Part shown: one piece after another, positions 3,214 through 15,612 of the stretch | Layout: every line of letters begins with the position of its first letter | How positions within the stretch are numbered: the first letter of the stretch is position 1 | IMG/VR virus record: IMGVR_UViG_3300011435_000024 | Coordinates: 1 to 42,602 of that record | DNA from: a virus | Lineage: Duplodnaviria > Caudoviricetes | Direction: 5' to 3' (one strand) | Length of the DNA stretch: 42,602 bases | The notes under the pieces: generated by a model | The model's database searches: none | The model's input: the letters and a program-made list of their open reading frames with translations, nothing else | Told to the model about the DNA's origin: nothing | Made by a program: the position numbers and the translations under genes

Positions 3214-3259
3214 GCTTCTCAAGCCATCAACCGGGGTTCGAATCCCCGTGGGGGCGCCA
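3214..3259 (+). mobile_element. attP core: 3' half of a tRNA-Glu (anticodon CTC)
   Basis: GC-TTCTCAA-GCCAT-CAAC-CGGGG-TTCGAAT-CCCCG-TGGGGGC-G-CCA gives anticodon loop, 3' anticodon stem, T arm, acceptor 3' strand and CCA; no D arm or 5' acceptor strand upstream; about 100 bp before the integrase. Confidence 0.88.
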
Positions 3260-3333
3260 GTGCTTTCAGAGGAGAAACGCGGGCGCGGTGCTTTGGTCGG
3301 GTTTGCATGGCTTTGGTTCAGTTCTTGCCAATC

Positions 3334-3353
3334 TGGGCACCGAATGGGCACCG
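3334..3353 (+). repeat. Tandem TGGGCACCG repeats, candidate integrase arm-type sites
   Basis: TGGGCACCG at 3334-3342 and 3345-3353; related GAGCACCGAA at 3161-3170 on the other side of the tRNA core. Confidence 0.5.
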
Positions 3354-3360
3354 TCCGGGC

Positions 3361-4500
3361 ATGGGGCTGAAGGTCGCCGTCAACCGCATGAACAAGCCGT
3401 ACACGCCGTGGCGCGTGCGCTGGCGCGTGCCGGGCTCGCCACGGCCGGAGCGGCGGTTTTTCAAGACGCGCGCCGCGGCAGTGGAGAAACGCGACGCGGT
3501 GCTCGCGCAGTTTGCGCAGCACGGCGCCGCGGCGTTTGCCCTGACCCCGCACGCGGCCGCGGAGTGGCGCGACGCGCGCGAGATCCTGCCGGCCGACGTG
3601 TCGCTGGTGGACGCGGCGCGCTTCTACCTGAAGCACCGCGGCGCCGCGCCGGTGGCGCGCGGCCCCACCGTGCGCGTGGCCTGGGTGGCGTTCTGCGCCT
3701 CGCGCGCCGGCCGCTCGCACCATTACCAGGTGCAGCTCGCCGGGCAGTGTGAGCCCCTGCTCGAGGTGGTGGGCTGGGACCAGCGGCTCGCCATGGTCCA
3801 GACCGAGGCGCTCGAGGCCGCGATCACCGCCGGCGGCGGGGCGGAGGAAACCAAGGCCAACCGTCGCCGGATGCTGGCGACGTTTTTCCGCTGGTCGGTG
3901 CAGCGGCACAGCCTGGGCGTCGATCCCATGGCGATGGTACGGCGCTGGCCGGTGACCCGCGGCAGCCCGCGGTTCTACACGCCGGCGCAGTTGCGGCGGC
4001 TGCTCGAGGCGCTGGCGGAGCGGGCGCCGCACCTGATCGGCGCGGTGGCGCTGCGCGCGTGGGCCGGGCTGCGCGAGATCGAGGTGCGGCGCATGGTGCG
4101 CGGCCACTATCTCGAGGCGGATCTGCGGCCAAAGACGCGGGCGATTCTGGTGCGCGCCGAGGTGGCCAAGGCGACCGGGCCCGAGGGCCGCGGGCGGCCG
4201 CGCTTGATCGAGGGTTTGCCGGCGAACCTGTGGGCGTGGCTCAAGGTCTCGCCTCCGGTCTGGTGGTCGATGAAGAGCATCGCGAGCCTGCGGCCGTGCT
4301 TCGCCCTCGCGAACGTCGCGCCGATCAAGAACGGGCTGCGGCATTCGTTTGTGACCTACGCGGCCGCATGGTATGAGAGCCTGGAGAAGGCGGCGATGGT
4401 AGCCGGCCACGACACCGAGGTGATGCGCGCGCACTACCTGGGACTGGCCACGAAGAAGCAGGCGCAGGAATGGTTTGCCATCGACCCGGCCGGCTGGTGA
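3361..4500 (+). CDS. int: Tyrosine recombinase / phage integrase
   Basis: Box I AGLR, box II GLRHSF, AGH and catalytic Tyr in RAHY; adjacent to attP. Start at ATG 3361 preferred over 3307. Confidence 0.92.
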   Translation: MGLKVAVNRMNKPYTPWRVRWRVPGSPRPERRFFKTRAAAVEKRDAVLAQFAQHGAAAFALTPHAAAEWRDAREILPADVSLVDAARFYLKHRGAAPVARGPTVRVAWVAFCASRAGRSHHYQVQLAGQCEPLLEVVGWDQRLAMVQTEALEAAITAGGGAEETKANRRRMLATFFRWSVQRHSLGVDPMAMVRRWPVTRGSPRFYTPAQLRRLLEALAERAPHLIGAVALRAWAGLREIEVRRMVRGHYLEADLRPKTRAILVRAEVAKATGPEGRGRPRLIEGLPANLWAWLKVSPPVWWSMKSIASLRPCFALANVAPIKNGLRHSFVTYAAAWYESLEKAAMVAGHDTEVMRAHYLGLATKKQAQEWFAIDPAGW

Positions 4501-4509
4501 GGTGGCAGC

Positions 4510-4674
4510 GTGAAAACCGCGCCATGGCGCAATCGCTGGCTGGGCCGCGACCAGGACCTGATGGTGCTCGTGATCGCGGCGCTGTTCGTGATCGGGGTCG
4601 TGCTTTACTACGGCCGCGGGGCCGTGCTGGCCGATGACCGGCCGGACGCAGAGGAAACGCAGACGTTCCGCTGA
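4510..4674 (+). CDS. Small single-pass membrane protein (54 aa)
   Basis: GTG..TGA frame read by hand: MKTAPWRNRWLGRDQDLMVLVIAALFVIGVVLYYGRG...; clear hydrophobic helix; below the ORF-track cutoff. Confidence 0.55.
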   Translation: MKTAPWRNRWLGRDQDLMVLVIAALFVIGVVLYYGRGAVLADDRPDAEETQTFR

Positions 4675-5040
4675 TCAGCGCAGCTCCGGCTTGGGTCCGT
4701 GGGCGAGGATGACGAGCTGGGGATCCGCGGCCGTGAGGTCGGCGCGCACGAGCGCGGCGGTGTGCGCGGAGAGACTGACGGGATGGATCTGCCGGTGCAG
4801 TTGGGCTCGCTCGCGTTTCGGGATCGCGACATGCACGGGCGTGGTGGCGTACTTGTGCTCCGCTGGGGAGACCGGCGGCACCGGTCCGCTGGGCGGCCGC
4901 ACCTGGGCGTTCCGCAGCAGGATGCGCAGGTAGACGGCACGATCGATCTTGAGGGCTTTCGCCCAGACGGTCGCCGCGGCGGCGAGCGGGTGGGGCAGGG
5001 ACACGGAGGTGCGGGCCTGAGGCGGCGGCGGTTTGGGCAC
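4675..5040 (-). CDS. Putative tandem ribbon-helix-helix DNA-binding protein
   Basis: RTSVSLPHPLAAAATVWAKALKIDRAVYLRILL and PVHVAIPKRERAQL...SLSAHTAALVRADL each fit a strand-helix-helix pattern; GTG start at 5040 assumed. Confidence 0.55.
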   Translation of the reverse strand: MPKPPPPQARTSVSLPHPLAAAATVWAKALKIDRAVYLRILLRNAQVRPPSGPVPPVSPAEHKYATTPVHVAIPKRERAQLHRQIHPVSLSAHTAALVRADLTAADPQLVILAHGPKPELR

Positions 5041-5093
5041 CGCCAGTGTCAAACCGTTGCGAAAATCCGGCACAACGCGCGAAACGTAGTGCA

Positions 5094-5399
5094 ATGAACT
5101 ACGGCGCGGCTTTCCTCGCGGGCCTTGTTGGTATCTTGACCTCGCCTCCTGCCTCCCCAACTCCTGCGACGGCCGCCTGGCTGGCGCGCTGCCGTCGCGC
5201 GGGCGCGCACGCGATGGATCCTGATGTGCTGGGCGCCGTGGTGCTCGCGCTGTGCGACGAGCTGGAGCGCGCCTATCGGGAGCAGGCCCTCACTGTGCCT
5301 TGCGTAAGGTTCGTGCCTTTCCCGGAGCTCGATAGTCTTTCGACAGGGCCTTGCGCCGCGCCGCGGTTTCTCCAGGAGTGTCCGGGGCCGGGGTGGTGA
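5094..5399 (+). CDS. Hypothetical protein (doubtful)
   Basis: ATG ORF filling the gap, but overlaps the 3' end of the repressor on the opposite strand by about 110 nt. Confidence 0.25.
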   Translation: MNYGAAFLAGLVGILTSPPASPTPATAAWLARCRRAGAHAMDPDVLGAVVLALCDELERAYREQALTVPCVRFVPFPELDSLSTGPCAAPRFLQECPGPGW

Positions 5400-5889
5400 G
5401 CGCGGCGGCTTCGGCGACGAGCGCACTTTTGCCCATGCCGCCCGCGCCGAAAATCAGCGTGGTCTGGTGCGGGGCCACGTGCTGGCCGTGGTGGCGCAGC
5501 TGCAGACCCTGCAGAGCCTCGAGGACGCGCGCCAGTTGCGGATCGAGGGCGGCGTCGGTGATGAGCTGGGCGAACATGTCGCGCAGGCCGGCGGGGGCGC
5601 TGATCAGGTGCTCGATGATTTCGCCGGGCAGGGTGATCTGGATCCCGTCCGGCGAGACGCCGAGCACCGCGACAATGTCGCGCAGGTAGGCGACGACGAG
5701 GGGCAGGCGGTCGGCCGGGGTGGCCGGCAGGCCGGTGACGATGCGAAAGGCCTGGTCGGGATCGGCCCAGCGGTCGCGCATGATGCGCTGGAAGGTGGCG
5801 CGCGGTACGCCGCAACGTTTGGCCGCGGCAAGTTCACTCAGTTCCTGACCTGCCATCATCGCCTTGATCGCGTCGCGGAAGCCTTCCAT
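5290..5889 (-). CDS. CI-like immunity repressor, N-terminal XRE-type HTH
   Basis: SELAAAKRCGVPRATFQRIM helix-turn-helix; divergent from the early operon; no S24 peptidase motif visible. Confidence 0.7.
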   Translation of the reverse strand: MEGFRDAIKAMMAGQELSELAAAKRCGVPRATFQRIMRDRWADPDQAFRIVTGLPATPADRLPLVVAYLRDIVAVLGVSPDGIQITLPGEIIEHLISAPAGLRDMFAQLITDAALDPQLARVLEALQGLQLRHHGQHVAPHQTTLIFGAGGMGKSALVAEAAALTTPAPDTPGETAARRKALSKDYRAPGKARTLRKAQ

Positions 5890-5975
5890 TTCCCGGCATA
5901 AGAACAGTTGCCACAAAAAGGGCAATATTTTGCTTGCCGCGATGCCACAAAATGAGGCAAACCCTGTATCACTTT
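5890..5975. promoter_or_regulatory. Divergent lysis/lysogeny switch with two operator-like palindromes
   Basis: AT-rich gap containing TTGCCACAAAAAGGGCAA (5908-5925) and TGCCACAAAATGAGGCAA (5943-5960). Confidence 0.65.
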
Positions 5976-6167
5976 ATGGCAACTTCGGTGCGCGCGACCG
6001 TGCGGGACATGCTGGAGCTCTTCCTAAAGAGCCCGACCGAGGCGCAACGTGCGGAGGCCAAGCATCTTTTGCAGGTGCTGGATGCCGACGAGGAGGCGCT
6101 GGCGGGCCGGGTGGTGAATTTCGCCGAGAAAGAGCCGCCCAAATCGGAGGACACCCGTGGAGACTGA
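5976..6167 (+). CDS. First early gene (Cro position), hypothetical
   Basis: ATG directly after the operators; 63 aa, helical; no clear HTH. Confidence 0.6.
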   Translation: MATSVRATVRDMLELFLKSPTEAQRAEAKHLLQVLDADEEALAGRVVNFAEKEPPKSEDTRGD

Positions 6168-6396
6168 GCCCGGCCCAATCACACCCGGCCAGGACTGGCG
6201 GACGCTGCCGCGGCAGATCTCGACCGAGCAGGCGCAGGCGTGGCTGGGGCTTTCCCACAATCAGTGGTTTGCCGCCCGCGACCGGCGCGAGATCCGCGAG
6301 GCGGTGGTGTGGGGCACCGGCGGCAAGGGCCTGCGGTTCTGGACGGTGAAGCTGGCGAAACTGGTACCTGCGCCCGAGGAGGCGCGCACCGCATGA
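6157..6396 (+). CDS. Excisionase/AlpA-like small DNA-binding protein
   Basis: ISTEQAQAWLGLSHNQW...GGKGLRFW resembles a winged-HTH Xis pattern. Confidence 0.5.
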   Translation: METEPGPITPGQDWRTLPRQISTEQAQAWLGLSHNQWFAARDRREIREAVVWGTGGKGLRFWTVKLAKLVPAPEEARTA

Positions 6397-6560
6397 ACCG
6401 CGACCCGGAAGTGTGGGATCCGGAGACGGAGCACGAACAGCCGCCGGCGCACTGGGTGATCGGGGCGAAGCTGTTCGCGGGGGTGTGCCTCTGGGCCGCG
6501 GGCGTGATGGCGATCACGGCGCTGCTGGCCGCGGCGGTGGAAAGGTGGGCCGGTGGATGA
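6393..6560 (+). CDS. Small membrane protein
   Basis: ATGA-coupled at both ends; hydrophobic stretch LFAGVCLWAAGVMAITALLAAAV. Confidence 0.65.
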   Translation: MNRDPEVWDPETEHEQPPAHWVIGAKLFAGVCLWAAGVMAITALLAAAVERWAGG

Positions 6561-6901
6561 ACGACGCGGAGCTGCAGCACCGACTGAGGCAGGCCGCGCA
6601 GCGCGCGAAGGCGCAGCAGATCGCGCACGCGCAGCTCGAGGCGATGGCCTCGCACGCGTGCGAGTTTGCGGCCAACGCGATCACGATCGGTTGCGCCGAG
6701 GCCATGAGCGTGAAGTCAACCGATGCCGCGGGCGCGAACTGCGACGCACTGGTGATCGTGCTCTCGGGTGCGATCCCGCCCGAACTCGTGACCACGCTGG
6801 AGACCCTGGTGATCGAGCACCGCACGCGGCTGCAGGCCGCGACGGCGCAATGTGTGCCCTTCCCGCCGGCGGGCAAACCGGCCAACCCCGAGGTGAACTG
6901 A
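6557..6901 (+). CDS. Hypothetical protein
   Basis: ATGA overlap with the upstream gene; typical codon usage. Confidence 0.7.
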   Translation: MNDAELQHRLRQAAQRAKAQQIAHAQLEAMASHACEFAANAITIGCAEAMSVKSTDAAGANCDALVIVLSGAIPPELVTTLETLVIEHRTRLQAATAQCVPFPPAGKPANPEVN

Positions 6902-6903
6902 GC

Positions 6904-7215
6904 ATGAGCTCGCCGATGATGCAGTTTTTCGAGCAGCAGGTATGTCAGCTGACGAACCTGGCGTTTCAACACGACGCGCGCGGGGTACACCCGGTGTGCG
7001 TGTGTTCCGCGGTAGACCCGAAGACGAACAAGCTGCGTGCTGCGGTGTTACTGCTGACGGGCGATTTGCTGCCGGAGGACTTGCAGCTACTGCAGGACCT
7101 GAAGGCGCGCATCGACGCGCGCGAGCCGGCCGGCGCGCACCGGGTTGAGACGGCGAAGTTTTCGAAATACCTGCCGGGCGCGGCGGAGCGCCGGGCGATG
7201 GACGGGAAAAACTGA
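6904..7215 (+). CDS. Hypothetical protein, possible paralogue of 6557..6901
   Basis: ATG 2 nt after the previous stop; shares a motif with the upstream protein. Confidence 0.7.
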   Translation: MSSPMMQFFEQQVCQLTNLAFQHDARGVHPVCVCSAVDPKTNKLRAAVLLLTGDLLPEDLQLLQDLKARIDAREPAGAHRVETAKFSKYLPGAAERRAMDGKN

Positions 7216-7217
7216 CC

Positions 7218-7439
7218 ATGCACCGCGACGATCCGGCCGCCGAGGCCTTCGACCGTGGGTTTGCCGCGGGGCAGAAACTGCTGCTGCCGCTCTGCCCGTA
7301 TCCGCGCAGCGCTGCGCTGCTGGGCGATGCGTGGCGGCAGGGCGTGGCGGCCGCGCAGCAGCAATGCCTGCGTGCGGTGAACGCGCAACCGCACCCCGAG
7401 CGCGCGGCGCTGCTGGTGGCGAATGCGGCGATTTCGTGA
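7218..7439 (+). CDS. Hypothetical protein
   Basis: Tightly packed ORF in the early operon. Confidence 0.6.
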   Translation: MHRDDPAAEAFDRGFAAGQKLLLPLCPYPRSAALLGDAWRQGVAAAQQQCLRAVNAQPHPERAALLVANAAIS

Positions 7440-7468
7440 GTAGTTAACCAATACAGCAAAGGAAACCC

Positions 7469-7858
7469 ATGCGAACCCTGACACGCCACAAGGTCAACGG
7501 GCTGAATGAAGCCCTCGAAATCAATGTGCTCGACGCACCCGGCGCCGGCGGCGCGAGCCACGATTACCAGATCAGACTCAAGCCCGATGGTACGGTTCAG
7601 ACCATTGACTGGCTGCTGAACTTCCAGAACGGCCCGATCAAGGAGGCCGGTTTCAACGGCCTGACGCAGGAGGTGCTGCTCGCGATCATCATCGACCGGC
7701 TGGAATGTTTTCAGCGCGGACCGCACGCCTGCCGGGAGAACGCGCTCGCCCTCACGAAGCTCGCCGAGGCGATGCACTGGCTGCAGCACCGGACCCGGTT
7801 GCGCCTGCAGGCCGGCGTGGAAGGTACGCACGCACCGATCCCGCCCGCACAGGGCTGA
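7469..7858 (+). CDS. tad1: Tad1-family anti-defence sponge protein (Thoeris/CBASS signal sequestration)
   Basis: Motifs GAGGASHDY, FQNGP, DRLECFQRGPHACRENALALTKL..A..WL..R and VEGT match the Tad1 family pattern as I recall it; AAAGGA RBS upstream. Confidence 0.8.
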   Translation: MRTLTRHKVNGLNEALEINVLDAPGAGGASHDYQIRLKPDGTVQTIDWLLNFQNGPIKEAGFNGLTQEVLLAIIIDRLECFQRGPHACRENALALTKLAEAMHWLQHRTRLRLQAGVEGTHAPIPPAQG

Positions 7859-7872
7859 ACGCCGCGCCGCCC

Positions 7873-8424
7873 GTGAAGATCTACGAACGCGCGGACGAGC
7901 CGGTGTTTGCCTGGGTGGCCGAGTTGGTGAAGAAATATCACCCGGACCTCGTGAGCGCCGGCGTTTCCATCGACGTGCTGATGGTGGAGCACGACGACCC
8001 GGACAACGAGAACCCGGCGATCTCGCATCGTGGCTACCCGGCCGCGGCGCAGGTGCGCGCGGTCCCGGTGAAGGACCGCGCCGGCGGCCGGCGTGATGCC
8101 GAGATCCTGGTCGACAAGCGGCTGTTCAAGACGCTGCCGGAGAAACGCAAGCAGGCGCTGCTCGACCACGAGCTGCAGCATTTGCAGCCGGTGCTGGGCA
8201 AGGAACAGCGCCCGAAGCTCGACGGCGCCGGCCGGCCGCGGCTGAAGCTGCGCCGGCATGACCGGCAGCTGGGCTGGTTTGATGCGATCGTACGCCGCCA
8301 CGGCGAGGCCGCGCCCGAGAAGGTGCAGGCGCGCGCGCTCCTGCAGGAGGCCGGGCAACTTTACTTTGATTTCCCCGGCGGAGGCGCCGGCGTGCAGATC
8401 GTCCCCAAGGTCGCGAACAACTGA
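7873..8424 (+). CDS. Putative phage metallopeptidase
   Basis: ALLDHELQH (HExxH) followed by LRRHD and IVRRHG; GTG start assumed. Confidence 0.75.
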   Translation: MKIYERADEPVFAWVAELVKKYHPDLVSAGVSIDVLMVEHDDPDNENPAISHRGYPAAAQVRAVPVKDRAGGRRDAEILVDKRLFKTLPEKRKQALLDHELQHLQPVLGKEQRPKLDGAGRPRLKLRRHDRQLGWFDAIVRRHGEAAPEKVQARALLQEAGQLYFDFPGGGAGVQIVPKVANN

Positions 8425-8427
8425 AAT

Positions 8428-8700
8428 ATGAATACCCCTCTCGATCCATCTCTCGCTGTTCCTGCTGGAACAGCTGGCGAGGCGGTCCGCGGTCCAGTGG
8501 GTCCGCGGACGGCGCCCGGCAGCACGTGCGCGACCTGTCGCCACTGGCAGCGCCGGCCGCAGCGCATGATCAACGAACGGCCGATTGGCGACGAGGTGGG
8601 CGCGTGCCACGCCGGGCCGCCCAAGGCGAGTTTCACGTGGCCGCAAACCTACGCGACCGACTGGTGCGGACAGTGGGGGACCAAGGGCGCGAAGCGATGA
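8428..8700 (+). CDS. Small Cys-rich metal-binding phage protein
   Basis: CATCRHW...GACHAGPP...WP.T...DWCGQW; N-terminus encoded by repeat copy 1. Confidence 0.7.
   Translation: MNTPLDPSLAVPAGTAGEAVRGPVGPRTAPGSTCATCRHWQRRPQRMINERPIGDEVGACHAGPPKASFTWPQTYATDWCGQWGTKGAKR
8446..8510 (+). repeat. Two-hairpin dispersed element, copy 1
   Basis: CCATCTCTC-GCTGTTCC-TGCT-GGAACAGC-TGGCGAGGCG-GTCCGCGG-TCCAGTGGGT-CCGCGGAC. Confidence 0.85.
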
Positions 8701-9356
8701 GCGACACGCCGGAGAACCCGGAACCATCTCCCGCTCTTCCTGCTGAAAGAGCTGGCGAGGCGAGCCGCGGTCCGGTGGGTCCGCGGCTGTGGCCATTGGG
8801 CCTCGCGCTCGAGCGCGCCGAGAAGATCCAGAAGGCGCTCGCGCCGTATTGCCGGCAGATTGCGATCGCGGGCTCGATCCGCCGGCTGCGCCCGAACGTG
8901 GGCGACATTGACCTGGTGCTCGAGCCAAAGCCGGACTGCCGGAATGCGATCATCGAACGCACGCTGCGCACCGCCACCCGCGACGGCGCGGACGGGCAGG
9001 ATTATTCCCGCTTCATCCTGCGCGACGGCCTGCAGCTCGATCTCTGGTGGGTGCGGCCGCCGGCGCTGGATTTCTTCACCAACACGCAAAGCAACTGGGG
9101 GATGCGGCTGCTCGTCGCCACCGGTTCGCGCGCGCACAACATCGAACTGGCGAAGCGCGCGAAGGCCCTGGGCAAACATTTCGCGCCGTATCGGGGAATC
9201 GAGATCGACGGGCAGTACGACACCGTGGACGTGGGCGGCCGGGCGACCGAGGTTTACCGCGGCGGCCGGGTGGGCGCGTGCCTCTCCGAGGAGCAGATTT
9301 TCGCGGCGTTGGGCGTGCCTTTTGTCGTGCCGCAGAAGCGGGAGGTGGGCGCGTGA
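8697..9356 (+). CDS. Minimal family X DNA polymerase / Pol beta-like nucleotidyltransferase (palm and thumb only)
   Basis: AGSIRR, GDIDLV, QLDL, ATGSRAHN and EEQIFAALG...P..RE motifs. Confidence 0.88.
   Translation: MSDTPENPEPSPALPAERAGEASRGPVGPRLWPLGLALERAEKIQKALAPYCRQIAIAGSIRRLRPNVGDIDLVLEPKPDCRNAIIERTLRTATRDGADGQDYSRFILRDGLQLDLWWVRPPALDFFTNTQSNWGMRLLVATGSRAHNIELAKRAKALGKHFAPYRGIEIDGQYDTVDVGGRATEVYRGGRVGACLSEEQIFAALGVPFVVPQKREVGA
8724..8788 (+). repeat. Two-hairpin dispersed element, copy 2
   Basis: CCATCTCCC-GCTCTTCC-TGCT-GAAAGAGC-TGGCGAGGCG-AGCCGCGG-TCCGGTGGGT-CCGCGGCT. Confidence 0.85.
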
Positions 9357-9571
9357 GGCCGGGCCACATGCAGGTTATGGTCCGACTCGACGATGGGCGC
9401 TTTATGCCCATCGACCCGCAGGTGCCGGCGGAGCACTACGAGGGTTGGAAGGTGCGCGCGATTTGGATCTTTGGCGAGGTGCAGGATCCCGCAGACGCCG
9501 CGCTCAGCTTTCTTGTCGCGAAACGGTGGATTCATCAGGTGCGGCCGGACTGTGTGCATTACGTCGCATGA
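9353..9571 (+). CDS. Hypothetical protein
   Basis: GTGA and ATGA coupling to neighbours. Confidence 0.6.
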   Translation: MRPGHMQVMVRLDDGRFMPIDPQVPAEHYEGWKVRAIWIFGEVQDPADAALSFLVAKRWIHQVRPDCVHYVA

Positions 9572-9819
9572 GCTTCGACCCGCTGCACGCGCCGGATCTG
9601 GAGCTCGAGCTCGAGCTGGCGTACGGGCACATGCCGGAACCGCAGCTGCCGGCCACACCGCCGACGCGGCCGGTGCCCGGCTGCACGGGCAAGCAGGCCT
9701 ACGCCGACGCCGTGCAGGCGCGGACGGCGATCAATCATCGCGAACGCCGCGGCAGCGAGCGGCTGCGCGCGTATCCGTGCCACGCGTGCGGGCGCTGGCA
9801 TCTGGCCCGGCGCCGATGA
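9568..9819 (+). CDS. Small zinc-finger-like phage protein
   Basis: CTGKQAY...RAYPCHACGRWHL motif. Confidence 0.7.
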   Translation: MSFDPLHAPDLELELELAYGHMPEPQLPATPPTRPVPGCTGKQAYADAVQARTAINHRERRGSERLRAYPCHACGRWHLARRR

Positions 9820-10352
9820 ACGCCTGGCACGCCACCGGTTGGCTGACGGCGCGGGCCGAGGAGCGGGTGACGCCGACGGGCCGCGTGCTCGCACGCTTTC
9901 GCCTGCACGTGCGGGACCGGGCGGGCAAGGAACACGTTCACCTGTGCGAGGCGCAGGGCGGGATCGGGATCCAGGACGTGCCGCTGGGCGTGCTGCAGAA
10001 GTGGCTCCGCTACTTCACGCCGGGCCGCAGCATGAGCGTGGAGGGCGAGGCTGTGCGCGTGCCGCGGTTCGACAAGGGGGGCGCGATCGCCGGCGAGTTC
10101 ACGGTGATGCTGATCACCGGCTGCGAGTTTCACGACAGAGGAGCGCCGGGCGAGGCCGTCGCTCCATCTCCCGCTGTTGCTGCTGCAACAGCTGGCGAGG
10201 CTGCCGGCAATTCCGAGGAATTGCCGGCGGATCCACCCAACGCGCAGGAGGAACTGGGCGCGGTCGCGCCGGCGGGCGGGAAGTGGCCGAAGGCCCCGAG
10301 CCCGTTGAAGCAATTTTTGGACAAGGAAACCCAAGGAAACCCAAAGTCATGA
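9816..10352 (+). CDS. ssb: Single-stranded DNA-binding (OB-fold) protein
   Basis: MN....TGWLT...EERVTPTG..LARFRL...PGRSMSVEG resembles SSB; low-complexity tail contains repeat copy 3. Confidence 0.65.
   Translation: MNAWHATGWLTARAEERVTPTGRVLARFRLHVRDRAGKEHVHLCEAQGGIGIQDVPLGVLQKWLRYFTPGRSMSVEGEAVRVPRFDKGGAIAGEFTVMLITGCEFHDRGAPGEAVAPSPAVAAATAGEAAGNSEELPADPPNAQEELGAVAPAGGKWPKAPSPLKQFLDKETQGNPKS
10164..10230 (+). repeat. Two-hairpin dispersed element, copy 3
   Basis: CCATCTCCC-GCTGTTGC-TGCT-GCAACAGC-TGGCGAGGCT-GCCGGCAATTC-CGAG-GAATTGCCGGC. Confidence 0.85.
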
Positions 10353-12040
10353 ATACACCAGCAGCACCCTCGAGCACCCCGGAGGCGGCCACGGCCGCGC
10401 CGGTTGTTAGCACACCGAAGACACCGGAAGGCGTGACGCCGGCCGGCGTGATCAAACCGATCGAGTTCCGCACGACGGGCGTGCCGTTGCGCGTGATCGT
10501 TCCGAACCCGGACCAGCCGCGCGACCACATCACGCCCGAGTCGATCACCGAGCTCGCGGACAGCCTGAAGCAGCACGGCCTGCTGCAGCCGGTGATCCTG
10601 ATCCCGGCCAGCGCGGTGCCGGGCAAGATCCGCGGCGAGTACATGCTCGTGGCCGGGGAGCGGCGCTGGCAGGCGGCCAGGAAAGTGGGCTGGGAACTGA
10701 TCGACGCGCGGGTGGCGTTCAACTGCACGCTGGCGCAGGCGCAGGTGTTCGCGCTGGTGGAGAACCTCGAGCGCGAGCAGCTCGACGCGATCCAGGAGGC
10801 CCGCGGTTTTTCGCAGCTCGTGGCGCTGGGGCTGACACACGAGGAGATCGGCAAGAAGGTGCACCGCGAGAAGTCGACCGTGACCAACGCGCTGCGCCTG
10901 TTGAAGCTGCCCGAGAAGGTGCAGCTGCAGATCCGCACGAAAGAACTCTCCGCCAAGCACGGCGTGGCGATTTTACGGTTTGAGGCGTTTCCCAAGGTGA
11001 TGGAGTTCATCGGCAAGGAGGCGGCGCTGGACGGCCGCAACGCCGAAGGGTTGCGCACCGGCCTGCCGTACTACTGGGCCATGGAGCGGACCAAGGTGGT
11101 CGTAAAGATCGCGAGCCAGGATCTGATCGCGGCCAACGTGACGCAGGGTACGCTGAAGGAGCAGCCGTGGTTCGTGCAGTCGCACAGCGATTTCTTTTCG
11201 CTGGATCCGGCGAAGTCGGCCGCGTGGCTGGCCGAGAAGACGAAGGCCTACGAGATAGAGAAGCAGGAGAAGGCGGCCGCGGCGCTGAAGAAACACCTGG
11301 CCGCGGTGGAAAAGGCCAAGGCCGCGGGCAAGGCGCCGCCCCCCAAACCGGAGCCGAAGCCGGCGAAGAAGATCAACCCGCGCACGGGCCAGGTGGCGCG
11401 CGCGATGACGCCGGCGGAGAAGCGCGAGCGGGCCGACAAGGTGACGAAGAACAAGCAGCAGCGCGTGAAGCTCGAGGCCGCCTGGGCGCAGACCGTGGCG
11501 ACGATCAAGAGCCTTAAGGAAGTGCGCAGCGCCGACGTGGCGCTGCTGGCCGACGCGTATCTGGACACAGGTTACGGCAGCGGCTGGCATGCGATGGACG
11601 ATGACGAGCTGGGCGAGGTGCTGGGGGTGCTCGAGATCAAGGACCGGGTGAAGACGCTGGAGCAGCTCACCCCGCTGCAGATCATCAAGGCCGCGCTCTA
11701 TACCGGCCTGCAGCGCATGTTTGAGGAGGCCAAGCGCGGCGCGCACGGCGTGCCGGAAGAGGCGGAGGCCTACGCCAAGGGCTACGAGAAACGGCTCAAG
11801 GCGAAGCCGGCGCCGAAAGCGGCCGCCAAGAAGCCGGCCACCGCCAAGAAGCCGGCCACCGCCAAGGCACAGCTGCGCGAGAATGAGAATCGCGTGATTC
11901 GCGACGAACTCGCGAAGGGCCGCAAACCCGCGGAGCTGGCGAAGGTGTTTTGCGTGTCGCTGCCGCGCGTGCTCAACCTGCAGGCGGCGATGCGCAAGGC
12001 CAAGGGTACGAAGGCCGAGAAGGCGGCCGCGGGCGCGTGA
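10349..12040 (+). CDS. ParB/Spo0J-family protein with long Lys/Ala-rich C-terminal extension
   Basis: PNPDQPR, GLLQPV, LVAGERRWQAA, LVENLERE and HTH THEEIGKKVHREKSTVTNALRLL; AKKPAT tandem repeat near 11825-11866. Confidence 0.9.
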   Translation: MNTPAAPSSTPEAATAAPVVSTPKTPEGVTPAGVIKPIEFRTTGVPLRVIVPNPDQPRDHITPESITELADSLKQHGLLQPVILIPASAVPGKIRGEYMLVAGERRWQAARKVGWELIDARVAFNCTLAQAQVFALVENLEREQLDAIQEARGFSQLVALGLTHEEIGKKVHREKSTVTNALRLLKLPEKVQLQIRTKELSAKHGVAILRFEAFPKVMEFIGKEAALDGRNAEGLRTGLPYYWAMERTKVVVKIASQDLIAANVTQGTLKEQPWFVQSHSDFFSLDPAKSAAWLAEKTKAYEIEKQEKAAAALKKHLAAVEKAKAAGKAPPPKPEPKPAKKINPRTGQVARAMTPAEKRERADKVTKNKQQRVKLEAAWAQTVATIKSLKEVRSADVALLADAYLDTGYGSGWHAMDDDELGEVLGVLEIKDRVKTLEQLTPLQIIKAALYTGLQRMFEEAKRGAHGVPEEAEAYAKGYEKRLKAKPAPKAAAKKPATAKKPATAKAQLRENENRVIRDELAKGRKPAELAKVFCVSLPRVLNLQAAMRKAKGTKAEKAAAGA

Positions 12041-12137
12041 ACCGGGAAAGCTGACTGACCGATGGGCGCGCAACCAGCATCAGATTCACAACGAGGCGGA
12101 ACCGCGTCCAGCGGTTCAGTCGAGCGGTTGGTTCGGC
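12036..12137 (-). mobile_element. attC-like site 1
   Basis: + strand: CGTGAAC-CGGGAAA-GCT.GACTGA.CCG ... CGG[T]TCAGTC[G]AGC-GGTTG-GTTCGGC, with two extrahelical bases T and G. Confidence 0.8.
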
Positions 12138-12352
12138 CTTTTTGTATGGGTGAATTGTGGGCTGGAGGCAACGGCATGAAGTGTGAGCACGCCGAATGCG
12201 CTGGCCGCACGTCTGTCATCTACATGACCGCCGAAGAATACGCCTCGCTCCCGGTCAAGAGTGGCCCGGAGGCGTGCATCTATATCTTCAACCGACAACT
12301 CGGCAAAGCCCTGTGCGATCAGCATAGGCCGAACGACCAAGCTCAGCGATGA
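12062..12352 (+). CDS. Cassette 1 gene, Cys/His-rich hypothetical protein
   Basis: ATG inside attC1; CEHAEC...C...LCDQH; ends PNDQAQR inside attC2. Confidence 0.65.
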   Translation: MGAQPASDSQRGGTASSGSVERLVRPFCMGELWAGGNGMKCEHAECAGRTSVIYMTAEEYASLPVKSGPEACIYIFNRQLGKALCDQHRPNDQAQR

Positions 12353-12433
12353 CGCCCGTGAAACCATCCGCACACGTTGAGGCTCGCGCGAATGACGCGT
12401 CTGCGCGGCATTCGCTGGGGCGCTTGGTTCGGC
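12328..12433 (-). mobile_element. attC-like site 2
   Basis: GCCGAAC-GACCAA-GCT.CAGCGA.TG ... CA[T]TCGCTG[G]GGC-GCTTG-GTTCGGC. Confidence 0.88.
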
Positions 12434-12636
12434 GCGTCTTTGCTCCGCTCTTTGTGCACTGGCGCGCACGCCGCCACCACCACGCGCCGTGTGATGCCTC
12501 TTTCTGCCACTTTCCGAGCGCGCAATGCGACGGCTCGCCGTGGGGTGGCGGCGAAGTGCGAGGCTGTCGCCAGCTCACAGGGTGTGGAATAAATCCGCCG
12601 AACACCAGAGTGGAGACACCTCGCGATGAAGCGTAA
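12349..12636 (+). CDS. Cassette 2 gene, Cys/His-rich hypothetical protein
   Basis: ATGA overlap inside attC2; ends PNTRVETPRDEA inside attC3. Confidence 0.6.
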   Translation: MTPVKPSAHVEARANDASARHSLGRLVRRVFAPLFVHWRARRHHHAPCDASFCHFPSAQCDGSPWGGGEVRGCRQLTGCGINPPNTRVETPRDEA

Positions 12637-12699
12637 GCTGCGGAAACCCTCCCGAGTTCGTGCCGCGCAACCGAGGTTGTCTCGCACGATTTGTTCGGG
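12597..12699 (-). mobile_element. attC-like site 3
   Basis: GCCGAAC-ACCAGA-GTG.GAGACA.CCTCG ... CGAGG[T]TGTCTC[G]CAC-GATTT-GTTCGGG. Confidence 0.88.
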
Positions 12700-12841
12700 C
12701 TCTGTTTTGATCGGCGAACTGAGCATCGAGCCGATGTCAGGGGGCTGCGTGTGGCTGCAACACAAGTGCGGGCTTGGGAAGGCGACTACCGCGGCGCACC
12801 TCGAATTGGTGATCCTGCGATATTTCTGGAGGGGAAAATGA
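12626..12841 (+). CDS. Cassette 3 gene a, hypothetical
   Basis: ATG inside attC3; ATGA-coupled to gene b. Confidence 0.55.
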   Translation: MKRKLRKPSRVRAAQPRLSRTICSGSVLIGELSIEPMSGGCVWLQHKCGLGKATTAAHLELVILRYFWRGK

Positions 12842-13113
12842 AGACAGAAGAATCGGAAGCACTCTCACTGCTCCTCGCGCGAGTGGCGCGGACGCTCAAG
12901 GCGCACGGAATGTCCGATTCCGTCGTCGCGTGGATCATGCGAGCGATGCTCGAATCGTGGGAAATAGGCGTGGTGGACGGCGGACCGCCCGTGGCCGACT
13001 GTGGGCACAAGGGCGAAGACGGATGCTGCCAGCACCCGCAAAACATCACGCCCGAGTGTCACCGCTTCGCGTGCCCAATCTGCCGTAGCCCGAACACCAA
13101 AACTCAGCCATGA
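12838..13113 (+). CDS. Cassette 3 gene b, Cys-rich hypothetical protein
   Basis: GGAGG RBS; CGH..CCQHP...CHRFACPIC; ends PNTKTQP inside attC4. Confidence 0.65.
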   Translation: MKTEESEALSLLLARVARTLKAHGMSDSVVAWIMRAMLESWEIGVVDGGPPVADCGHKGEDGCCQHPQNITPECHRFACPICRSPNTKTQP

Positions 13114-13219
13114 GCACCGACAACAGACTCGGAGAAAACAAGTGCCCCCAGTGTGGCGGACCATCGCTCGCAAGCGTGGTGTGCGCGCGGTGCTCATTGG
13201 CTGGAGTGCCTTGTTCGGT
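13089..13219 (-). mobile_element. attC-like site 4
   Basis: CCCGAAC-ACCAAA-ACT.CAGCCA.TGAGCACCG ... CGGTGCTCA[T]TGGCTG[G]AGT-GCCTT-GTTCGGT. Confidence 0.9.
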
Positions 13220-13463
13220 GGAATCTACTTCGCGTCAGGTGATCGAAAAGAAACTCCTGACCGCGCTCGAAGACGAGAACACCGTGGCGATTCTCGCGAG
13301 CAAGAGAGACCTCAACCTCTACATCGACGCACTGCGATTTTGGGACATGCACCTCTCGATTCCTGAACGGCGTAAACATCTCGCTGAGATGCTCGCTGGC
13401 CTGAAGCAACTGCGGGCGTCCGCATTTCGACCGAACCATAGATTAGGCCACACCGAGAAATGA
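13110..13463 (+). CDS. Cassette 4 gene, hypothetical with CxxC..CxxC N-terminus
   Basis: ATGA overlap inside attC4; ends PNHRLGHTEK across the attI-like site. Confidence 0.65.
   Translation: MSTDNRLGENKCPQCGGPSLASVVCARCSLAGVPCSVESTSRQVIEKKLLTALEDENTVAILASKRDLNLYIDALRFWDMHLSIPERRKHLAEMLAGLKQLRASAFRPNHRLGHTEK
13430..13448 (-). mobile_element. attI-like simple site closing the cassette array
   Basis: Minus strand GCCTAAT-CTATG-GTTCGGT: L box, 5-nt spacer, R box; no attC hairpin follows. Confidence 0.6.
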
Positions 13464-13777
13464 GCGTAAGGCGTAAATCGCGGTGGCGCAGTCAGAACCT
13501 GCGCCATCACAAGAAGCGGGCGAACCAGCGCGCGGCGAAGGAACGCAAGCGGCTGGCCGCGCTGGCCGCGCCGATGGATCCGGATGTGCCGCAGGCCGCG
13601 GTGCCACGCGGGCGGCCGACCGGGTTTCGGGTCACGGTGGAATGCCTGGAGGATGGCCAGCGGGCGAGCTTCACGGCCGCGCGCGGGCCGTTCGGGCTGA
13701 CGATCTCGCCGACGTTGGCCGGGCGGCGGGTGACGTGTGTGCTGCAGTATTACGTGCCTGAAAGGCTGGCGCGGTGA
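13460..13777 (+). CDS. Hypothetical basic protein
   Basis: ATGA-coupled; codon usage returns to genome-typical high GC. Confidence 0.65.
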   Translation: MSVRRKSRWRSQNLRHHKKRANQRAAKERKRLAALAAPMDPDVPQAAVPRGRPTGFRVTVECLEDGQRASFTAARGPFGLTISPTLAGRRVTCVLQYYVPERLAR

Positions 13778-14445
13778 TCCTGCGCCCGTTCCTGCTCGAG
13801 CCGCGGTGGCTGGAGAGCGAGCGCCTGCAGGCGCTGCCCGCGCACCTGCAGCTTTTCTTTTTGCGACTGGGCCACGCCTGTGATGGCGCCGGCCGGTTTG
13901 AGAACGATGCTGCGATACTTCGCCCGGCGCTGTATCCACGCATGCTCCACAAAGTGTCGGTGCGGGATGTGCAAGGCAACGTCGTGCAGCTGCACGGGGC
14001 CGGGCTCATCAAGCTGTACACGGTAGGGGCGCGGGGATTCGGTGAAGTCCTGAATTACCGGCAACGTGACGCGAACCGGAAGGTGATCCACCCGGCCGAA
14101 CCCGGCGAACCGGAGTTATTCACAATCCCCGCGGCCGCGCCGCCGGGGGGGGAAATGAATGGAAGGGAAGATGAAGGGAACGCGCGCGAGGCGCGCGCGC
14201 CCCAGATGAAAAAAACCAGGCCGACCCGGCCGGCGCGGTTGTTCCCGCGCGAGATCGAGGCCTTGCTGACGGACCGGCGGCGGCAGCTGGCCGCGATCCG
14301 CAATCCCGGGGGCTGTGCCTACCGCGGCCGCGACACCTATAGTGCGCAGGAAGTGAAGCGGGAAGGCGAACTCATGCTGGAGGTGGCGGCGCTCGAGGAA
14401 GCGCTGCGCCAGGCGGTGCGCGACAGTCTGGAGGTGCCGGCATGA
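13774..14445 (+). CDS. Putative replication initiator / replisome organiser (N-terminal winged helix)
   Basis: WLESERLQAL...LFFLRL..ACDGAGRFENDAAILRPALYP...L...GLIKLY resembles phage initiator N-termini; purine-rich linker. Confidence 0.6.
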   Translation: MILRPFLLEPRWLESERLQALPAHLQLFFLRLGHACDGAGRFENDAAILRPALYPRMLHKVSVRDVQGNVVQLHGAGLIKLYTVGARGFGEVLNYRQRDANRKVIHPAEPGEPELFTIPAAAPPGGEMNGREDEGNAREARAPQMKKTRPTRPARLFPREIEALLTDRRRQLAAIRNPGGCAYRGRDTYSAQEVKREGELMLEVAALEEALRQAVRDSLEVPA

Positions 14446-14753
14446 CCGCGCCCGACATGGTGACGGCGCTGGCCCACCGCGTGCGCGCGCTCGAGGCGCA
14501 GGTGACGGCGCTGCTCGGCAAGGGCGGCCCGGGCCGGCTGGTGGACGATGCCAGCGTGATCGCGGCCGTGGCCGAGGCGCTGGGCGTGGCCGCGGGCGAG
14601 GTGACCGGCGGCCGCAAGCGGCCGGAGGCGGTGGCCGCGCGGCGCGTGGTGGTGAAGGCGCTGCGCGAACGCTTTGCCTGGAGCTGGGCGCGGATCGCGC
14701 GCGCGGTGGGCTGTGACGTGAAGCGGGCGCAGCGGCTGGCCGCGGGCCGGTAG
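14442..14753 (+). CDS. DnaA C-terminal-like HTH protein
   Basis: VIAAVAEALGV...EVTGGRKR...VAARRV...FAWSWARIARAVG matches the DnaA domain IV pattern. Confidence 0.75.
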   Translation: MTAPDMVTALAHRVRALEAQVTALLGKGGPGRLVDDASVIAAVAEALGVAAGEVTGGRKRPEAVAARRVVVKALRERFAWSWARIARAVGCDVKRAQRLAAGR

Positions 14754-14772
14754 GGTTGGCCGGCAAACCCGG

Positions 14773-14837
14773 CTCTCTCGCTGTGCCTGCTGGTCACAGC
14801 TGGCGAGGCGGGCCTGCGGTCCGGTGGGTCCGCAGGC
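14773..14837 (+). repeat. Two-hairpin dispersed element, copy 4 (upstream of terS)
   Basis: CTCTCTC-GCTGTGCC-TGCT-GG[T]CACAGC-TGGCGAGGCGG-GCCTGCGG-TCCGGTGGGT-CCGCAGGC. Confidence 0.85.
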
Positions 14838-14946
14838 GGCCAATCGCACGGAATCGCCCCCGGAATCGCCCGGGCGATTCGTCGGCGGGCTGGCGGAGGG
14901 CAGGGCGCCGCGGGCACAACGGGGCTTTCACCGCATTGCGCCCGAT

Positions 14947-15612
14947 GTGAGGAACGAACCGAAACAGCTGACGTTTGCCGAGCTCGAGGCCACGCTCAAG
15001 CAGAGCGGGGTGGGCGAGCTGCCCGAGGGCGTGGACGTGCTGACCCGGCGGGAGTTCGCGTTTGTCACGGCGCTGCTGGGCCACGGGCAGCAGGCGCGCG
15101 CGGCGCGCGAGGCGGGCTATTCGCCCGACGCCGCGGCCGCGATCGCGAGCGAAACCCTGCGAAAACCGAAGGTTCACGCGTTTTACCGGCGCTGCCTGGC
15201 CAAGGTGGCGAACAACGCGGAGCAGCTCGTGATGCGGGTCTACGAGCGGAGCGTGCTCTACCACGCCAAGGCGATGAGCGCGGCGCAGGAAATGCGCGAA
15301 CTCGAGGCGGCTGAACAGGCCCTGCTGCGCCTAGACAAGGCGGCCGGCGGCGGCAAAAGCTCGACCACCGAACATTACGAGACGCGGCGCGCGGTCTGGA
15401 TGCGCGAGGAGAAGAAATACGCCGACATGGCGAACGCCGCCGACGTGCTGCTGGGCTCCCTGCTGGGGAAGCTGAAGCTCAACGTCGATGTGAGCGGCGG
15501 CCTCAAGGGCGTGGTGGTCGACGAGGCGCTGAGCAACGAACTGGTGGAGCAGCGCCGGCGGCTGCAGTCCACGAACCCCGCCTGGAGGACCGTCAGTGGA
15601 AGCAGCAATTGA
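14947..15612 (+). CDS. terS: Terminase small subunit
   Basis: LTRREFAFV...ARAAREAGYS...A...ASETLRKPKV motif; directly before terL; start uncertain (14824 or 14947). Confidence 0.85.
   Translation: MRNEPKQLTFAELEATLKQSGVGELPEGVDVLTRREFAFVTALLGHGQQARAAREAGYSPDAAAAIASETLRKPKVHAFYRRCLAKVANNAEQLVMRVYERSVLYHAKAMSAAQEMRELEAAEQALLRLDKAAGGGKSSTTEHYETRRAVWMREEKKYADMANAADVLLGSLLGKLKLNVDVSGGLKGVVVDEALSNELVEQRRRLQSTNPAWRTVSGSSN

Follow-up and report, generated by a model that had tools for sequence, protein, structure and literature searches.

Integrons are regarded as devices of bacteria, and a cassette in reverse orientation is seen as an error without expression. In class 1 and Vibrio integrons, the promoterless cassette genes face away from the Pc promoter, and inversion is held to block their expression. 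According to the available text of PMC5027507, the bottom strand of an attC site is the strand on which the AAC comes first and the extra bases lie on the far arm. Such sites also occur in phages; the available portions of one study report 17 clusters of attC sites lacking an integron integrase (CALINs) among 10,705 phage genomes, and IntI1 recombined five of the six phage attC sites tested (Qi et al., 2023; PMC9892861). Clusters of this kind are thus already known from phages, and what appears new here is an inverted layout linked to a phage-borne IntI. This layout is described for a block within IMG/VR virus record IMGVR_UViG_3300011435_000024, the whole 42.6-kb stretch of which (positions 1–42,602; "the window") was analyzed. 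The block is quite probably an orphan array of four cassettes, with reversed genes and a likely attI, that was built by an IntI borrowed in trans.

The four-cassette array

A preliminary description of this DNA had claimed four hairpin sites of attC geometry with unrelated sequences, and both statements hold. The window was scanned for AAC, 6–7 nt, 3 bp, an extra base, 6 bp, an extra base, a stem, 5 nt, and GTT, which returned exactly four matches, all on the + strand and each with an extra G and an extra T; the minus strand gave none. Among 60 dinucleotide shuffles, the mean was 0.32 matches with any extra base, and none carried both G and T. A covariance model built from 30 attC-like sites, all outside the window, scored the four sites at 36–61 bits, on the + strand only, and the next-best match in the window at 16.8 bits. 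These are hairpin 1 (12040–12133, 36.2 bits), hairpin 2 (12332–12429, 60.8 bits), hairpin 3 (12601–12695, 41.5 bits), and hairpin 4 (13093–13215, 52.7 bits); as first noted, the spacer is 7 nt in site 1 and 6 nt in the others. Since the AAC comes first and the extra bases lie on the far arm, the + strand of the window corresponds to the attC bottom strand. On this folded strand, the AAC in R′ pairs with the GTT in R″ at all four sites, and the hairpins are confirmed to have the attC architecture of integrons.

Other structural results agree in most respects. Folding of the + strands as single-stranded DNA gave z-scores of −2.4, −3.9, −2.0, and −3.8 for sites 1–4. The expected extra-helical T and G appeared as bulges in the minimum-free-energy or centroid structure of sites 1, 3, and 4, but not in the fold of site 2; the two extra-helical bases on one arm are hence present in four of four sites by the scan and in three of four by predicted fold, and an unpaired central spacer and a variable terminal structure are present as well. 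Covariation was found at 11 of 14 pairs across 30 related sites, a figure biased towards structure by the selection of sites with the same geometry. The cores, CCGAAC/GTTCGG, depart from the full RYYYAAC/GTTRRRY consensus at one position or more. This deviation had been pointed out before, but it is not special to the phage, as the chromosomal integrons of the probable host phylum share it.

Each hairpin opens one cassette, and the four cassettes follow one another on the + strand at 12042–12333 (292 bp), 12334–12602 (269 bp), 12603–13094 (492 bp, with two open reading frames, ORFs), and 13095–13435 (341 bp). Beyond the AAC/GTT core, the two ends of each cassette pair over 6, 5, 6, and 4 bases, compared with 1, 4, 3, and 3 bases within the composite sites, and in all four cases the own end is the best partner among the five AAC boxes. 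The claim that own ends complement each other better than the ends of composite sites is thereby upheld for every cassette, as is the placement of the boundaries at AA^C. The same preference for own ends over composite ends holds for 32 of 39 cassettes in viral loci and for 48 of 61 in host integrons.

The fifth AAC, overlooked earlier, lies at 13434; it forms the right-hand end of cassette 4, and ATTAGGC stands 5 nt behind it. The resulting simple site (13434–13448, +) resembles an attI, without the TCGTATAT box and the intI that follow it in relatives. Because four hairpins each stand to the left of one of four bodies, each unit would consist of a hairpin and the gene that follows it, which leaves 13434 to be read as attI; with a hairpin on the left of each body and an attI-like AAC on the right, crossover would take place at the left AAC. 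The row of cassettes is thus likely to end in an attI, the putative point of entry, with cassette 4, which adjoins it, presumably the newest and cassette 1 the oldest.

In bacterial integrons, cassette genes occupy the top strand and are read from Pc; here they occupy the bottom strand, a reversal that had also been overlooked. ORFs starting at 12062, 12349, 12626, 12838, 13110, and 13460 form an overlapping chain with starts and stops inside the hairpins. The ORF of cassette 1 (12062–12352, +) begins within hairpin 1, whose AAC overlaps the parB stop, and encodes a Cys/His-rich product of 96 aa, or of 58 aa from the in-frame ATG at 12176 behind a GGAGG. The ORF of cassette 2 (12349–12636, +; 95 aa) starts at an ATGA in hairpin 2, at once the stop of one ORF and the start of the next, and stops at 12634–12636 in hairpin 3, which also holds the start of the first ORF of cassette 3 (12626–12841, +; 71 aa). 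The second ORF of cassette 3 (12838–13113, +; 91 aa), with a GGAGG before its ATG, is joined in the same manner by the ATGA at 13110 in hairpin 4 to the ORF of cassette 4 (13110–13463, +; 117 aa). The first ~35 residues of the latter come from hairpin 4, and its end crosses the attI-like site into the ATGA at 13460. The hairpins, by supplying start and stop codons, would couple translation along the chain.

The + coding strand of cassette 4 is backed by 220 homologues (E ≤ 0.001); that of the second cassette-3 gene is backed by a Cys-rich domain in common with an array gene of the related locus L076 (21 of 31 positions identical, E 6e-14). Cassettes 1 and 2, without homologue support for strand, are assigned to + from the ORF chain and one GGAGG. 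The cassette ORFs had no PHROG, Pfam, or NCBIfam match; an atlas comparison gave only matches below 0.8, and a word-indexed search with ORF 12838 matched only itself. As the genes are reversed and co-directional with the phage early operon, they would be read from that operon and would need no Pc promoter. A sigma-70-like promoter was not found in 4500–15000.

The window represents a temperate phage, with profile matches to an integrase, ParB, a replication-initiation-like protein, the terminase small subunit, the major head protein, and tail proteins, including a tail fibre. To the left of the array lies the ParB-like gene (10352–12040, +) and to the right (13460–14445, +) a 105-aa ORF of no assigned family and the replication-initiation-like (rep) gene. 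The right-flank ORF at 13460 was considered as a homologue of the ORF behind the array of locus L074 and rejected. As had been noticed, the block is more AT-rich than its flanks (60.8% versus 68.6% G + C), and only 3 of 825 windows of equal length are equally low. A single contig in run X1, possibly the sample of origin, spans the array without differences. Elsewhere in the window, the ordinary phage integrase (3307–4500, +; phrog_1, E 2e-13; no TIGR02249 match) is directly preceded by a sequence like a tRNA 3′ half that ends in CCA (3215–3259, +), a probable attP; we take this half to be Glu-like, although ARAGORN reported no tRNA. A weak, below-cut-off Acb2/Tad1 hairpin match at 7469–7858 (+), with homologues in L074 and L184, may be a counter-defence sponge protein. 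The early operon also includes a small PolX-like nucleotidyltransferase gene (8526–9356, +) that is present in L067, L072, and L088 too.

Related phages and host-phylum integrons

As the preliminary description stated, the window has no IntI, by a TIGR02249 profile search and by other profile searches. In a complete integron, intI adjoins attI, an arrangement missing from the window but present in its relatives L075 and L076. Alignment of the rep protein led to L055, on the same contig as L075, whose IntI scores 273.9 bits against a TIGR02249 cut-off of 265. An alignment of 30 homologues of this IntI then yielded 53 viral loci, 15 of them with IntI-like proteins (L075–L089). Seven of 11 proteins tested reach the cut-off, those of L075 and L076 among them, and phage genes flank most of these loci.

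L075 and L076 share with the window rep or the terminase small subunit gene, the terminase large subunit gene (terL), a portal-like gene, and the major capsid protein gene (MCP), in the same order, the last three being 34–42% identical. In both, intI stands directly behind an attI of the form AAC-5-ATT, a spacing found ahead of intI at 8 of 13 viral IntI-like loci. The two phages carry unrelated arrays between a common left gene and attI–intI: 5/30 and 12/30 positions match ahead of the terminal AAC, and 28/30 and 24/30 behind it. L076 has four cassettes, with own-end pairing of 4–6 bases past the core. In L074, a closer family member (terL and MCP 52–53%), seven attC matches follow rep, and the DNA retrieved contains no IntI. 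Among seven family relatives, four (L053, L062, L067, and L072) have no array in the DNA fetched, two of these stretches ending upstream of rep. L182 and L184 each have an attI and upstream attC sites without intI; L182 lies on the same contig as an IntI, and the contig name of L184 carries the genome number of L075.

Several further observations concern these loci. L079 and L182 belong to the same viral contig, on which an IntI array is accompanied by a second attI that lacks intI and, downstream, by a third attC cluster. The same IntI branch occurs in Mu-like transposable phages (L077, 2343–5776; L078, 5235–6374), and therefore the integron platform seems to move between phage types. By PHROGs, a methyltransferase-like gene is carried as a cassette in L088 (8140–9078); the cassette gene at 9140–9999 of L075 is, in our reading, also methyltransferase-like. 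A scan for the attI motif returned at least 121 loci, one with IntI downstream, and attC matches in 3 of the 80 searched; about half of the matches listed are one recurring unrelated sequence, and no frequency is derivable. An own-end pattern scan gave 52 loci, six with any attC-like geometry, mostly by chance.

Homologues of the rep protein carry Opitutaceae and Verrucomicrobia names, and Verrucomicrobia is therefore the probable host phylum. In a sample from this phylum, 87 of 301 genomes encode an IntI above the TIGR02249 cut-off, and 20 of these IntI loci (L142–L161) served as a control. Strand was compared by longest-ORF coverage, with one-site arrays, bodies of >2.5 kb or <60 bp, and L037, L040, and L050 excluded. 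The 15 viral loci, the window among them, supplied 41 bodies, of which 31 are best covered on the bottom strand and 4 on the top strand, with 6 tied; in nine host loci with arrays, a top-strand ORF covers 71 of 76 best. The reversed gene layout is the rule in phage arrays, opposite to that of host-phylum integrons with the same attC family. The attI spacing is AAC-6-ATT in six of six host sites printed, as opposed to the phage spacing, AAC-5-ATT, of the window. In a quick tree, 15 viral IntI-like proteins and 12 database homologues were set apart from 25 host rows on one branch with a support of 81, at which the split is neither shown nor rejected. When 401 genomes of the class were searched with a profile of the phage-type IntI, one gave a match at E ≤ 1e-95.

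Indirect evidence for cassette mobility comes from the cassette-4 gene family. In L163, a homologue of this gene is enclosed by two attC sites that share one polarity; its own ends pair, and its neighbours are different. In the other five of six viral loci, the homologue has no attC. Protein P0129 has nearly the same hairpin-encoded N-terminus as ORF 13110 on another body, and both core-encoded end motifs are found in 32 of the 131 family proteins examined. These findings fit cassettes that were made from, or are decaying into, ordinary phage genes. Among P0129, P0202, and P0244, this N-terminus is joined to differing bodies, as if attC and gene reassort. Two other features were observed beside members of this family: a long promoter-like direct repeat brackets the L163 cassette array (3449–3560 and 5730–5830), and in L162 a short CCGAAC-containing direct repeat, with no full hairpin, flanks the homologue (near 3940 and 4260), possibly a decayed cassette.

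Assembly of the array

Because related phages encode IntI beside such arrays, it is likely that the cassettes arrived by exchange through a borrowed enzyme. The + strand would fold, and IntI would bind the hairpin via the extra T and G and exchange strands at AA^C, mobilizing a hairpin with the gene downstream. New circles would enter at 13434, pushing older cassettes towards parB. For the enzyme, the preliminary description favored a host IntI. Given that related phages encode their own IntI and that the attI-like site of the window has phage rather than host spacing, the likeliest enzyme appears to be a phage-type IntI supplied by a co-resident phage or by an ancestor, with a host IntI as the second choice. 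The proposed shuffling of accessory genes gains indirect support from the whole-array differences between L075 and L076, where identity sets in at the AAC, and from the cassette form in L163, but not from joints or circles in contigs.

A number of results weigh against an array assembled in this way. The TCGTATAT box, seen in 10 of 13 IntI loci, has no counterpart in the window, and a loose form of the attI-like pattern occurs three times there. Within the window, longest-ORF coverage by itself does not choose a strand (two ties, one body slightly top). The left breakpoint between L075 and L076 is not pinned to an exact position, and the attC sites of L075 are weak (21 and 17 bits). Homologues of the cassette-4 gene lack attC in five of six viral loci. 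Viral contigs held no close relative by rep or ParB, and a metagenome scan found 14 distant loci only, besides the window's own record (L058), which enters none of the counts; the best capsid match among cultured phages is 32%. Finally, no excision joint or circle was found in contigs of three runs (X1–X3), an assembly form that drops rare variants.

Since no recombination, circle, or close relative has been seen, the array may be a frozen relic: an ancestor's IntI would have built it, after which intI and part of attI were lost, leaving immobile cassettes as ordinary early genes. The absence of IntI, the attI-like site without its accessory box, the attC-free members of the cassette-4 family, and the lack of joints in contigs all agree with such a history. 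It is nevertheless unlikely, as all four stems are nearly perfect and keep both extra bases, own-end pairing is intact, the G + C content of the array has not ameliorated, and 87 of 301 genomes of the probable host phylum encode an IntI above the cut-off.

Far less probable is the capture of a piece of a host chromosomal integron in one step, an event of a kind described for phages in the available text of PMC9892861 and compatible with the attC family that the window shares with its probable host phylum. Host genes lie on the top strand in 71 of 76 cases and host attC sites are near-identical, whereas the window's sites are unrelated in sequence and its genes are reversed, coupled to the phage operon, and have homologues in viral contigs. 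There is even less to recommend recombination of the hairpins by the phage's own integrase (3307–4500): the window yielded no other tyrosine recombinase, but this one has no IntI match and adjoins the tRNA-like half that reads as attP, while relatives use a separate IntI. It is equally hard to credit that the hairpins are RNA structures for regulation or termination and not recombination sites. Small terminator-like matches lie on the right arm of site 1 and of site 2, but the AAC/GTT cores are fixed, the extra bases occupy positions of IntI binding, own ends pair, intI is linked to such sites in relatives, and Rfam gave no match.

Returning to assembly by a borrowed IntI, a broader model can be offered tentatively, as somewhat short of probable. 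Verrucomicrobia phages may run their own integron lineage, with its own IntI branch and attI, in which cassettes are minted from early genes by placing in front of them a hairpin that encodes the start and N-terminus; orphan arrays would tap a pool common to co-resident phages. To our knowledge, how integron cassettes are first made is still an open question. Since one gene family occurs both with attC and without it, the birth of cassettes might be observed in these phages. The reversed layout, combined with hairpins like those of the host and a phage-borne IntI, would provide a site-specific route to phage gene mosaics and possible cassette exchange between phages and host integrons; it would also offer a testable way into the question of how cassettes first arise. 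The window itself is an orphan; what makes it valuable is its connection to an IntI carried by phages, together with the clean host control.

Comparison with known integron systems

The block has four neighbouring attC sites with no IntI nearby, two or more being what defines a CALIN, and it sits inside a phage genome. Like the phage CALINs in the available text of PMC9892861, it is an attC array without IntI that is presumably worked by an outside enzyme. It differs from them in its bottom-strand genes read through hairpins, in the attI-like site that it has kept, and in its relatives with a phage-type IntI. The cassettes of phages TJE1 and PH101 are described in the same text as typical of bacterial arrays (PMC9892861); in TJE1, we found a single attC site, with genes on the top strand. 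The available text of PMC9892861 mentions neither reversed genes nor a phage IntI branch, and Verrucomicrobia or Opitutaceae terms are absent from its supplement. The available parts of PMC8876359 and bioRxiv 10.1101/2025.06.18.660453 add nothing on an inverted phage layout, and a literature search, in which few subscription papers were covered, found no paper on this layout with a phage IntI branch.

The chromosomal integrons of the host phylum (L142–L161) resemble the window in their attC family, GTTCGG/GTTAGG cores, and own-end pairing, and they carry intI on the bottom strand 3′ of attI, as in the phage-borne layout. They differ in their top-strand genes, homogeneous attC sites, AAC-6-ATT attI, and longer bodies (median 375 bp versus 257 bp in viral arrays), and their IntI falls on the other branch from the phage IntI, at the unstarred support given above. 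With class 1 and Vibrio integrons, the window shares the bottom-strand AAC in R′ and extra-helical bases on the L″ arm, like G16 and T24 in the available text of PMC5027507. In contrast to those integrons, its cassette genes, being reversed, point towards attI, and their transcription would come from the phage operon.

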